Below, one piece after another: positions 24,687 through 28,270 of a stretch of 64,000 bases of DNA. The stretch comes from Escherichia coli (GTDB taxonomy: Bacteria > Pseudomonadota > Gammaproteobacteria > Enterobacterales > Enterobacteriaceae). The notes under the pieces are model-generated. The model did not search any database and was not told the origin of the DNA. It saw only the letters and a program-made list of their open reading frames with translations. A program made the translations under genes and the position numbers. Location of the stretch: NCBI RefSeq assembly GCF_003018255.1, contig NZ_CP027440.1; one strand, given 5' to 3'. Each line of letters opens with the position of its first letter. The first letter of the stretch is position 1.

Positions 24687-24710
24687 TTCGTTATTCAACG
24701 AGACGTAAAA

Positions 24711-24740
24711 ACGCCGACCAGTGGTCGGCGTTTTGCTTTT
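24711..24740 (+). terminator. Rho-independent terminator of the rpsF-priB-rpsR-rplI operon
   Basis: acgccgaccagtggtcggcgt hairpin followed by tttgctttt. Confidence 0.85.
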
Positions 24741-25046
24741 AAGTGATAAAAACCGCAGAAACAGACGTTCCCTCCATAAATCTCTTGCTATTCCTTTTAT
24801 AAAAAGTTCGCAGTACCCATACCTGGCCCCCAGCCTCGCCGCTGGTAGTTCGTGTCATGTTTTTTACGCGTAAAACACGACAAAAGCATCAATACAGCGA
24901 TCGTCTCACTTGTATGATAATAAAAACAATATGTTATATATGAATGTGCTGTTATTTTATTGTTTTTATATATAAAAAGATAAAATACCATCACTTTCGT
25001 AATCTTGAACGCTTTGCAGGTGCGTTCAATCCAATAAATGCTAATA

Positions 25047-25067
25047 TTATGGCTATCATAGCCATAA
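25047..25067. promoter_or_regulatory. Perfect 21-bp palindrome, candidate operator of the HTH/HipA-like module
   Basis: TTATGGCTAT-C-ATAGCCATAA (10-bp arms, 1-bp centre) ending 21 bp upstream of the HTH gene start codon. Confidence 0.45.
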
Positions 25068-25087
25068 AAAGATAAAATATTATCACT

Positions 25088-25579
25088 ATGGGTAAAAAAA
25101 CAGCACCGTTACTCCCTTATACGAATCAGATGCTTAGTGAATTTGGTGAGCGGCTGAAACTTGCTCGTTTACGACGCAGGCTTACCGCAAAGCAAGTTGC
25201 TGAACGTGCTGGGATGTCGCCAATAACATTGCGCTCTCTGGAGTCAGGAAGTGCAGGGGTCACGATAGGGGCATATTTGTCTGTGATGCAGGTTTTGGGC
25301 CTGGAAACGGATTTAAATAAGCTTGCAGCTGAAGACGACTTAGGGCGTCAGCTCCAGGATTCCCGTTTGATTAAAAAAAGAGGGCTTTCTCGTGCATCAA
25401 GTAAGAATGAAGAAGGTTCTCAGACAGCCTCATTGCAGATGAGGCACGAGAAAGAAGGTCATCTCACCACGGATTTAACAGCACTGGCAGAAGGCTCGAC
25501 GCCATCTATTACAGGAGAAACATCAACCTCTCTTGCAGCACTATTAAAACCGATAAAAAAACCGTTAAAAGGAAATTAA
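25088..25579 (+). CDS. XRE-family HTH protein, HipB-like putative antitoxin with long C-terminal extension
   Basis: 163 aa; HTH_XRE signature around [32 protein letters not shown]; Ser/Thr/Glu-rich low-complexity C-terminal ~75 aa; stop 25577-25579 is 2 bp before the kinase ATG. Confidence 0.75.
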
Positions 25580-25581
25580 TT

Positions 25582-26850
25582 ATGGCATTAATCGGAGTGT
25601 ATGCGGATTGGGAAGGCCTGGATGGTCCGGAGCGGATTGGTTATTTACACAGTCGCCGCACTCGGACGCGTGAGATATTTGAGTTTGAGTACGATAAAAA
25701 GGCGCTTGCAGATCCTTCACTTAATTTCATTCAGTTAGATCCTGAAATAATGTTGTATGAGGGAGCACACTACCCAATTCCTCCAAAGGATAAATTTGGT
25801 GCATTTAGTGATTCCTGCCCGGATCGTTGGGGGCGTATGCTAATGAAGCGTCGTTTTGAGAGGGATATTCGAGACGGGTTATGTGATAAAGACTCCCACC
25901 TTTATGAGTCTGATTATCTACTAGGTGTTCATGATCTTTATCGGGTTGGGGCCCTTCGATACAAACGTGAAGACGCTGGAGAGTTTCTTGATAATCGCAT
26001 TGATGTTGCAGCCCCACCATTTACCGAAATAGCGAGTCTGGAAAGGGCTAGCCGGGCAATTGAAGAAGATCCTGATAATAAAGAGCTAATGGGGCAAAAA
26101 TGGTTAAGAATGCTAATCGCTCCGGGGGGATCATTAGGGGGGGCACGTCCGAAAGCCAGTGTTGTTGATGAAGCTGGGCATCTCTACATCGCTAAATTTC
26201 CCAGTGTAAAAGATGAGTATGATGTTGGTGGATGGGAAATGGCCGTTAATGCACTTGCTGTTGGCTGTGGACTGAATGTTGCACCTGCTCAGGCGCATAA
26301 ATTTGCCAGCAATTACCATTGTTTTATGGTTCGTCGTTTTGACCGCACTAATGCGGGAAGGCGTCTGCATTTTGCTTCGGCTATGACACTAACCAGGCAT
26401 CAGGATGGTGAAGATGCCTCTACAGGTGTGAGTTATCTGGAATTAGCAGATGTTCTTATCAGGCATGGCGCGCAGACTAATACTGATCTTAAGGAACTCT
26501 GGTCCAGGATTGTTTTTAATATTCTTGTTTCTAATACCGATGATCATTTACGCAATCATGGATTTATCTTGATACCAGGAAAAGGTTGGCGGCTTTCTGA
26601 GGCATATGATTTGAATCCTGTGGTCAGGTCTGATGGTTTAAAACTCAATATTACGGAAAATGACAATGCACTTGATTTGGAATTAGCTAGAGAAGTTGCA
26701 GAGTATTTTCGACTTAGTTTGACGGAAGCTGATGACATTATTGCTAATTTTAGAGGGATTGTCAGTCAGTGGCGAATCATTGCCGAGCGTCTGAGATTAC
26801 CTGGTCGTGAGCAAGAGTTAATGGCAGAGGCATTCAGAGCGTCAATTTAG
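25582..26850 (+). CDS. HipA-family serine/threonine kinase (putative type II toxin)
   Basis: 422 aa; Gly-rich loop GGSLGGARPKAS, catalytic-loop motif NTDDHLRNHG and HipA_C-like C-terminus (DLNPVV...); aaggaa RBS upstream of ATG. Confidence 0.8.
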   Translation: MALIGVYADWEGLDGPERIGYLHSRRTRTREIFEFEYDKKALADPSLNFIQLDPEIMLYEGAHYPIPPKDKFGAFSDSCPDRWGRMLMKRRFERDIRDGLCDKDSHLYESDYLLGVHDLYRVGALRYKREDAGEFLDNRIDVAAPPFTEIASLERASRAIEEDPDNKELMGQKWLRMLIAPGGSLGGARPKASVVDEAGHLYIAKFPSVKDEYDVGGWEMAVNALAVGCGLNVAPAQAHKFASNYHCFMVRRFDRTNAGRRLHFASAMTLTRHQDGEDASTGVSYLELADVLIRHGAQTNTDLKELWSRIVFNILVSNTDDHLRNHGFILIPGKGWRLSEAYDLNPVVRSDGLKLNITENDNALDLELAREVAEYFRLSLTEADDIIANFRGIVSQWRIIAERLRLPGREQELMAEAFRASI

Positions 26851-26947
26851 AATAGTTATTTCGATATATTCGCTAAATCATAAATTTGCGAAGCAATGCC
26901 AGTAGATACTGAACGTTTTGGAAGAGACGTTTAATTTATGAGAAAAA

Positions 26948-26982
26948 TAGAAACGCTACAAAGCTAAATTATAGCGTTTCTA
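26948..26982. terminator. Bidirectional hairpin between the HipA-like gene and the convergent MFS gene
   Basis: tagaaacgct ... agcgtttcta inverted repeat (10-bp stem, ~15-nt loop) in an AT-rich context. Confidence 0.5.
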
Positions 26983-26992
26983 TGTAAAATAA

Positions 26993-28270
26993 TTAGCTTG
27001 TCGCTAACTGTACTTGTGGTTCTTCGTCTTTAACTTTGATAAGCATCCACAGCGCAATGGCGCCAATAATGTCAAAGAAAGCCAGGGCAATAAAGAACGG
27101 CGCGAAGCCAATAATGTGAACGAATGCCCCGATAAACAGGTTGAAAATCAACTGACCGCTCCATGCACAGGCTCCTGCCATACCCACAGCGGTAGCTACT
27201 TCGTCTTTTTTGAATAGGTCACCGCCCAGAGTTGCTGCAACAGTAGAAAGACATTGATGCGAGAATGCGCCAATGCTAATCAGTAATACGGCGATGTAGG
27301 GATTTTCGACAATACTCACCAGACCAATCGTCATCATAATGACGGCTGCAATAGTGAAGGTAATTCTTCGTGAGTTAATTAAACTCACGCCGCGATCGTG
27401 GAAGAACTTCGCGACAAAACCACTGGCTAAACAGCCGAGATCGCCCAGCAGGAAAGGTAGCCAGACGAACATGGCAATTTCTTTCAGGCTAAAATGCAGC
27501 GTTTCGACGAAGAAAATCGGTACCCAGAAGTTAATGGTTCCCCATGCCGGGTCAGCGAGAAAACGCGCGATGCCAATCCCCCAGAAATTACGTTGGCTGA
27601 GGATATGCTTGATTGACGTTTTTTCTTTCTTATCTGTTTTAAGATGCTGTTCTTGCCCAGACTCAATATAGTGGCGCTCTTCATCAGAAAGGCGTTTAGC
27701 ATCTTTTGGATCTTTATAACAAAAGAACCAAAATAAAGCCGCGAGTAAAGCAAGGCTACCTGAGACAATAAACGCAAATTGCCAGCTATGAAACATAATG
27801 CACCAGGCAATCAACGGTGGAGCAAGCATCGCGCCGAGTGAGGTGCCCATATTGAAAACACCTGTCGCCACGCCACGCTCTTTTGCCGGGAACCATGTTG
27901 ATGCGGTTTTTACACCCGCAGGAATTGCCGATGCTTCGCTGAAACCCATCAGGGCGCGCATAAATGCCAGACCTGACCATGTTCCTGTCAAGGCATGCCC
28001 CATTGTCGCCAGGCCCCAGATTGCGGCACATATCGCAAAACTTAACTTCAGACCCACGGTATCAATAAAGAAGCCCATTATCGGTTGCCCCAATGTATAG
28101 GCCAACTGGAATGCACTGACAATCCATGAATATTGTTCTTTGGTTATTCCGGTTGTCTCCATAATCGTTGGAGCCGCAATACCTAACGCCGTTCTGTCCA
28201 GATAATTGATTACAGTGATAAAGCATACGAGGGCAATCATATGCCATCGATAATTCTTTATTTTATTCAT
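26993..28270 (-). CDS. MFS transporter, anion:cation symporter family (ExuT/hexuronate-transporter-like)
   Basis: 425 aa, 12-TM-like hydrophobicity; MNKIKNYRWHMIALVCF...WFPAKERG...KEIAMFVWLP resembles ExuT/DgoT-type sugar-acid transporters as recalled from memory. Confidence 0.8.
   Translation of the reverse strand: MNKIKNYRWHMIALVCFITVINYLDRTALGIAAPTIMETTGITKEQYSWIVSAFQLAYTLGQPIMGFFIDTVGLKLSFAICAAIWGLATMGHALTGTWSGLAFMRALMGFSEASAIPAGVKTASTWFPAKERGVATGVFNMGTSLGAMLAPPLIAWCIMFHSWQFAFIVSGSLALLAALFWFFCYKDPKDAKRLSDEERHYIESGQEQHLKTDKKEKTSIKHILSQRNFWGIGIARFLADPAWGTINFWVPIFFVETLHFSLKEIAMFVWLPFLLGDLGCLASGFVAKFFHDRGVSLINSRRITFTIAAVIMMTIGLVSIVENPYIAVLLISIGAFSHQCLSTVAATLGGDLFKKDEVATAVGMAGACAWSGQLIFNLFIGAFVHIIGFAPFFIALAFFDIIGAIALWMLIKVKDEEPQVQLATS

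Follow-up and report, generated by a model that had tools for sequence, protein, structure and literature searches.

The 64,000-nucleotide (nt) stretch of Escherichia coli DNA analyzed here (RefSeq assembly GCF_003018255.1, contig NZ_CP027440.1), hereafter the window, contains a hipB-like gene followed by a gene for a HipA-family kinase, both on the plus strand, as are all coding features given below. The hipB-like gene (25088..25579, stop codon included) encodes a 163-amino acid (aa) XRE-type helix-turn-helix (HTH) protein, identified from the list of open reading frames (ORFs), Pfam and RefSeq, where WP_000516891.1 has identical boundaries and is labelled 'helix-turn-helix domain-containing protein'. 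The kinase gene (25582..26850) encodes a protein of 422 aa (Pfam HipA_C, E 3.4e-47; RefSeq WP_001562534.1, 'type II toxin-antitoxin system HipA family toxin'). The two genes are separated by 2 nt, with hipB upstream, as in a bicistronic unit in the sense of Gerdes et al. (2021), and the HTH expected of a HipB-type antitoxin occupies residues 18-75 (Pfam HTH_31, E 6.6e-11; HTH_3, E 2e-6). The pairing of a HipB-like HTH protein with a HipA-family kinase, proposed in an earlier note made from the sequence alone, is thus borne out by the two domains and the 2-nt gap. The protein, hereafter HipB, is not an orthologue of K-12 HipB (NCBIfam NF007271, 17.1 bits against a cut-off of 79) and falls outside the Y4mF/couple_hipB subfamily (TIGR03070, 30.3 bits against a cut-off of 71.65); it is HipB-like by context and not a member of the curated HipB families. 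The earlier note had singled out, quoting its letters exactly, the region 25300-25579, which corresponds to residues 71-163. Judged from conservation among homologues, this region has a three-part anatomy, with a conserved helix, a variable linker and a conserved end motif, and this is our main finding.

In the tail region the two alternative frames contain many stop codons. An 81-nt probe over the core-tail junction matched 1044 of 5426 complete E. coli genomes (about 19%), among them Nissle 1917 and the type strain ATCC 11775. A database search with HipB returned 2362 homologues; full-length matches of approximately 55-70% identity were found in Serratia, Yersinia, Erwinia, Enterobacter, Salmonella, Burkholderia, Azotobacter, Stenotrophomonas and Achromobacter. 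Scanning one genome per species yielded 80 loci from other species, in which the HipB homologue is 149-280 aa long with the C-terminal motif in frame, and the HipA homologue after hipB is 396-430 aa (mostly 419-430). In the pairs recovered from these loci the genes usually share a 4-nt ATGA overlap or else are spaced within about 10 nt, and a full-length HipA of the same clade lies directly downstream of the tailed HipB wherever the locus is long enough (about 60 of the 80). A wrong ORF boundary caused by a frameshift, named in the earlier note as an outcome that would undo its reading, is ruled out, because the same boundaries are found in the RefSeq annotation, the junction recurs in the 1044 E. 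coli genomes, and homologous loci are present in the 80 other species.

Residues 1-96 are nearly invariant in an alignment (A1) of 27 diverse homologues, which were drawn from Enterobacterales, Burkholderia, Azotobacter, Stenotrophomonas and Achromobacter. The HTH DNA-binding domain (residues 18-75, 25139..25312), recognized by HTH_31 and HTH_3 and by a fold match to PDB entry 9U9G, is followed by a helix at residues 76-96 (25313..25375), where D75, D83, G86, R87, L89, Q90, D91 and R93 are invariant in A1; a helix over residues 72-101 is predicted in the AlphaFold2 model of HipB alone. Between the window allele and that of E. coli RS218, codons 1-99 show zero nucleotide differences.

The conserved core is followed by a hypervariable disordered linker (residues 97-142, 25376..25513), which in A1 has no conserved columns and many indels, and for which the predicted local distance difference test (pLDDT) score is 24-40. 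Measured over 154 sequences, the linker proper spans 31-207 residues (median 46); P, S, R, A, K and T are over-represented in it, and aromatic residues and Cys are strongly depleted. Some relatives (loci L075 and L079, proteins P0258 and P0347) have much longer tails, of proteins 237-328 aa in total, with the same end motif, so the spacer length is very elastic. In the model of HipB alone, residues 101-144 have pLDDT below 50, with 37-40 in the linker, and the charge-hydropathy boundary places the tail among disordered sequences. The coordinates of PDB 9U9G cover only 77-85 of the 153 residues of each chain and leave out the tail, which may be taken as an experimental hint of disorder. Taken over the models, some 65 residues after the conserved core are predicted to lack a stable fold.

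These results modify the earlier description of the region, as approximately 90 residues of low-complexity, Ser/Thr-rich sequence with no recognizable fold after the HTH. The disorder prediction suggested in that note agrees with it for residues 97-142, while residues 76-96 are near-invariant with a predicted helix and the last 20 or so residues hold a conserved motif. With an entropy of 3.6 bits, the tail is not low-complexity in the strict sense. Serine and threonine do make up 25-28% of the tail in the window allele; however, over the 154 family linkers their share ranges from 2 to 37% (median 20%), so that Ser/Thr richness is not a conserved property of HipB tails and probably reflects ordinary linker composition plus a helix-capping box. 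The conserved feature of the region is the end motif.

The C-terminal motif (residues 143-158, 25514..25561) comprises the N-cap T145, a helix with L149, L152 and L153, and then basic residues; the basic segment ends with PLKGN (residues 159-163, 25562..25576). In A1, L149 is invariant, and T145, L152, L153, K154 and P155 are each at least 90% conserved. The pattern [S/T/N/D]-[S/T/A]-x-x-L-A-x-L-[L/I], then basic residues, is matched strictly in 164 of 185 close homologues. When these 164 sequences are anchored on the first motif Leu (L149, position 0), position -4 is T/N/S, -3 is S/T/A, -1 is S/D/E and +1 is A/S; +3 is L, +4 is L/I/F, +5/+6 are often K-P, and +7 to +12 are rich in Lys and Arg, with K/R in 63-81% at +8 and +9 and common through +12. 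The distance from residue 96 to the first motif Leu varies from 38 to 168 residues in close homologues and from 29 to 216 in a wider sample. That sample was obtained by a HipB profile search of 1.84 billion cluster representatives (50% identity), which gave 141 clusters at E <= 1e-30, the longest protein having 328 aa; motif statistics were taken on the 128 representatives of at least 140 aa. The strict motif was found near the C-terminus of 67 of these 128 representatives, compared with a mean of 1.7 in shuffled tails (maximum 7 in 200 shuffles). A further 36 exceeded the 99th percentile of position-weight scores in shuffled tails, giving 103 of 128 with the motif, and the wider consensus among representatives reads [S/G]-G-F-x-[S/T]-[S/A/T]-x-x-L-A-x-L-[L/I]. 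The motif lies 6-62 residues from the C-terminus in the representatives (median 16).

The hydroxyl residues ahead of the helix vary. Among the 103 representatives, position -4 is occupied by Ser in 57, Thr in 25, Asn in 8, Asp in 5 and Arg in 5, and position -3 by Ser in 51, Ala in 29 and Thr in 17. Among close homologues, 20% have Asn at -4, and all carry one or more Ser or Thr within -5 to -3; the register of the hydroxyl shifts between subgroups. Since S/T/N/D is the classical N-cap set and stands directly before the predicted helix, position -4 is best read as a helix N-cap. The motif is modelled as an N-capped amphipathic helix of the LxxLL type with a basic patch behind it.

The behaviour of the motif was compared in AlphaFold2 models with and without the kinase. 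In HipB alone, a motif helix is predicted at residues 146-152 with pLDDT of 52-55. In a model of HipB fused to HipA by a (G4S)6 linker, calculated with an alignment (A2) of 29 paired HipB-(G4S)6-HipA sequences (the window pair and 28 from the loci), 50 unpaired HipA and 41 unpaired HipB sequences, the predicted template modelling score was 0.69 and the HTH had pLDDT of 83-88. The natural linker remained at 24-33 and the synthetic linker at about 30, while residues 141-150, which form a beta-bridge (144-145) and a helix (146-150), reached 84; the mean for residues 151-160 was 67. An internal control is provided by residues 1-9 and 76-96, which are equally conserved and scored below or near 50 in the same model, so conservation alone does not yield the high score of the motif.

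The best structural matches to the kinase part of the fused model are E. coli and Shewanella HipA (E about 1e-13), followed by HipT. By sequence the kinase lacks close similarity to K-12-like (clade-I) HipA; the fold is nevertheless HipA-like. Identity is 26% to K-12 HipA (over 147 aa) and 26% to HipH/YjjJ (over 109 aa), and a phmmer search against the PDB reached only HipT, E. coli HipA not being reached at E 1e-3. On these comparisons the kinase represents a deeply divergent HipA clade. More than 8000 relatives were found; within the clade, kinase identity is 71-83% across Enterobacterales, Pseudomonas, Burkholderia and Stenotrophomonas, which is unusually high for a toxin. The Gly-rich loop of the kinase reads APGGSLGGARPKA.

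We give roughly even chances to the reading in which the HipB tail is a flexible tether whose short end motif folds onto HipA and serves there as an auxiliary clamp or neutralizing element. According to this proposal, residues 97-142 would be a fast-evolving disordered spacer, in which flexibility and approximate length matter and sequence does not. Residues 143-158 would form the functional element, with the Thr/Ser N-cap, an LxxLL-type face made of L149, L152 and L153, and a Lys/Arg patch. The motif would be unfolded in free HipB and fold on the cognate HipA, so that the HTH dimer would gain a second, flexible grip on the toxin, adding to neutralization or to the stability of the complex. 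Such a layout would bring to a HipB core the usual plan of type II antitoxins, in which one domain binds DNA and a disordered C-terminus binds the toxin. Contact between the motif and the kinase is favoured because the motif becomes confident in the model with HipA while the linkers stay at about 30. The anatomy, the conservation, the predicted disorder and the rise in model confidence with HipA are shown here; binding, its site and any effect on kinase activity are inferred. The general idea of the earlier note, that the tail interacts with the adjacent kinase, is thereby supported. The tight linkage of hipB and hipA, here and in the other species, also counts in favour of the proposal, and there is a precedent in K-12, where the extreme C-terminus of HipB binds a pocket on HipA (PMC8262856).

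Several observations weigh against the clamp. K-12 HipB lacking its C-terminal 16 residues has the same affinity for HipA, and only its Lon-dependent turnover is altered (PMC3376134). Two metagenomic HipB proteins end right after the conserved helix: one of 104 aa (L088, 481-2102) is followed by a 429-aa HipA which is 50% identical to that of the window and has the catalytic motifs, and the stop codon of the other, of 108 aa (L087, 292-934), overlaps the next gene, which is cut by the contig end and of which the N-terminal 108 residues are visible. As tail-less relatives exist beside an intact kinase of the same clade, the tail is not indispensable to the family and is rather an added layer; it is probably auxiliary. 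Moreover, the fused run contained 70 HipB rows and the HipB-only run 27, and the pLDDT of the HTH rose as well, so the comparison between runs is confounded; in principle, the HTH domain instead of HipA could be the partner of the motif in the fused model.

The tail could alternatively be a degradation signal, its motif and basic end being recognized by Lon or ClpXP, possibly via protease tethering. HipB would then be labile and HipA would be freed once antitoxin synthesis stops; such a role may coexist with kinase binding if the degron is masked in the complex. In K-12 HipB the unstructured C-terminal 16 residues are needed for Lon degradation and not for binding of HipA or DNA (PMC3376134), and an unstructured C-terminal stretch is also found here (residues 101-144, with the tail missing from the coordinates of 9U9G). 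The existence of tail-less relatives, which suggests that neutralization may not need the tail, fits this explanation too, as does a disordered tail ending in a conserved hydrophobic helix and a K/R cluster, a layout that somewhat resembles the ClpX adaptor SspB in architecture only. However, a degron leaves unexplained why the motif is confident only in the model that contains HipA; moreover, the tail has neither the terminal Trp of K-12 HipB nor an LAA-type end, and the motif is set back from the extreme C-terminus by a median of 16 residues. We hold a degradation signal to be unlikely. The tail may also act as an active-site plug, a further role offered in the earlier note.

Still less probable, in our opinion, is that the conserved Ser/Thr before the helix serves as a phospho-acceptor for HipA or as a pseudosubstrate in its active site, by which the kinase would read or switch the grip of its own antitoxin. 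Hydroxyl residues are indeed frequent there (S or T at -4 in 80% and at -3 in 66% of representatives, and at least one in every close homologue), the fused model places the motif confidently next to something, and HipA-family kinases are themselves autophosphorylated on a Ser of the Gly-rich loop (PMC7758455), which makes regulatory Ser phosphorylation a native trait of the family. Yet no acceptor position is universal: N or D occupies -4 in 13% of representatives, and Ala occupies -3 in 28%. No single invariant acceptor, whether Ser/Thr or a fixed non-phosphorylatable mimic, was found in a fixed register with the docking residues, and S/T/N/D ahead of a predicted helix has the look of an N-cap. 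The motif is unlike the known target loops of HipA and HipT (PMC7758455), the Ser/Thr content of the linker is not conserved, and a literature search on HipB phosphorylation returned no report. A likeness of S-L-A to the GGSLGGARPK loop of the kinase is limited to the E. coli subgroup, position -1 being D, A, S or E elsewhere; mimicry of the Gly-rich loop (S-L-A-A against S-L-G-G) was rejected as subgroup-specific. The substrate or pseudosubstrate idea of the earlier note, grounded on Ser/Thr richness, is thus weakly disfavoured by the sequence comparisons. If it were true, it would mean phosphorylation-gated release, for which no description was found for any HipBA system in the literature searched. 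It seems about equally improbable that the motif binds a partner other than HipA, such as DNA via the basic patch, a second HipB dimer in higher-order operator complexes, or a host protein via the LxxLL-type helix. Most homologues have a K/R cluster behind the helix, HipB itself binds DNA and its gene is preceded by a palindrome and direct repeats, and the surface beside which the fused model places the motif may be other than that of HipA. On the other hand, no intramolecular partner is predicted in HipB alone, where the motif scores 52-55, and the tailed HipB is directly followed by a full-length HipA of the same clade in about 60 loci.

Two further parts of hipB deserve mention. The N-terminal peptide ahead of the HTH (residues 1-17, 25088..25138) has K4, A6, L8 and P10 invariant in A1. 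The first 10-17 residues of HipB are near-invariant from Gamma- to Betaproteobacteria and are predicted to be unstructured, the fused model giving residues 1-9 a pLDDT below 50; the peptide may be a second short functional element, e.g., a DNA-contacting arm or a kinase contact. Within the linker, 16 of the 17 hipB differences between the window and RS218 fall inside a 69-nt hypervariable patch (25394..25462). For codons 100-125 (25385-25462), the proportions of synonymous (pS) and nonsynonymous (pN) differences are 0.285 and 0.183, respectively, compared with a pS of 0.06 in hipA; the patch could be a recombination patch or a local hotspot.

A run of seven adenines followed by GAGGG (25373-25384) marks the exact point where the conserved core gives way to the tail. 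Tail-less database proteins of 117 and 129 aa, from draft and older assemblies, result from loss of 1 nt in this A7 run (25373-25379) or in the following GGG, and the tail-coding frame is still open downstream of these deletions. Among the 1044 complete RefSeq E. coli genomes carrying the gene, none has an exact match to the A6 or the GG allele, and the shorter proteins are most likely due to sequencing errors in the homopolymer, or else are very rare variants. Since the deletions are probably errors or rarities, E. coli strains with no tail proved unusable as a natural test of whether the tail is dispensable.

Upstream of hipB, a perfect palindrome with 10-nt arms, TTATGGCTAT-C-ATAGCCATAA (25047..25067, 100% complementary), is located 20 nt before the start codon, and a 24-nt direct repeat, ATAAAAAGATAAAATAYYATCACT, occurs in two copies (24972-24995 and 25064-25087), the second of which ends at the hipB start codon. 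The palindrome and repeats (24972-25087) are candidate operator or promoter elements; a simple palindrome scan found no shared palindrome upstream of hipB in other species. The module sits on the E. coli chromosome between rplI and a major facilitator superfamily (MFS) transporter gene. In the window (24700-28270 and beyond), rplI is followed by the hipBA module and then by genes for the MFS transporter, a flavin adenine dinucleotide (FAD)-dependent oxidoreductase and coenzyme A (CoA)-transferases. The hipB junction was chromosomal and present in a single copy in every one of the 1044 carrier genomes, which suggests that the segment adjacent to rplI is a lineage-specific chromosomal piece and not a mobile plasmid-borne module. 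Anti-phage defence models of PADLOC gave nothing beyond generic HTH matches.

The annotated gene pair and the crystallized HTH core of a relative are already known. In the literature searched, no description of a conserved C-terminal motif or of a tail function was found, and no experimental study of the clade turned up. The crystallized relative is the HipB of Pseudomonas fluorescens 2P24 (PDB 9U9G, released 2026-04-01), which belongs to the same family (residues 1-99 matched by phmmer at E 1e-30); the literature searched contained no paper on this entry. Its HTH core is 62-63% identical to that of the window protein, with a root-mean-square deviation of 1.9-2.0 Å (chains A and B), and its 153-aa chain likewise has a long tail after the conserved helix. 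It differs in carrying a motif variant, …QTSSELAKKLL…, with another Leu spacing and a score below the threshold (judged from the lookalike cluster representative P0333), and the entry contains no kinase.

The restraint of HipA by HipB is still an odd case among toxin-antitoxin systems. In the K-12 model, HipB contacts HipA at a distance from the active site, and the main role of its short tail is to set Lon-dependent turnover. The clade of the window is large and appears to carry a different solution, a long tether with a conserved helix-forming motif. The K-12 tail is similar in being an unstructured extension after the HTH of an antitoxin of a HipA kinase, with a tip that contacts a HipA pocket (PMC8262856) and a role in Lon turnover (PMC3376134). 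However, the last 16 residues of K-12 HipB, which end in Trp88, form a tail four times shorter, with no LxxLL-type helix. The published HipBA of Acidovorax is a K-12-like system and was set aside as not relevant to the clade of the window.

Classical type II antitoxins such as Phd, CcdA, RelB and MazE have an N-terminal DNA-binding domain and a disordered C-terminus that folds on the toxin. In these proteins, however, the C-terminal region is essential and wraps around the toxin along its whole length, and the toxin is a nuclease or gyrase poison and not a kinase; in the family described here, the core and a motif of about 15 residues are held apart by a spacer of about 45 residues (31-207), and some relatives have no tail. 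The HipBST systems come close to our proposal in another way, because HipS neutralizes a HipA-family kinase by direct contact while HipB is mainly a transcriptional regulator (PMC8262856, PMC7758455). HipS differs in being a folded domain of about 100 aa homologous to the N-subdomain of HipA. The 422-aa kinase of the window keeps its N-terminal domain, its full-length model being alignable to HipA structures, and the candidate neutralizing element is a short linear motif on HipB itself. Tethering adaptors of the SspB type combine a dimeric body with a flexible, variable linker and a conserved C-terminal docking peptide; the layout of HipB seems alike, but the sequences are unrelated, and the parallel would be relevant mainly to a degradation signal. 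Should the motif indeed grip or block the kinase, a peptide of about 15 residues would offer a simple experimental on/off handle for it, and HipB proteins would span both the allosteric mode of K-12 and the classical mode in which a disordered arm folds on the toxin.

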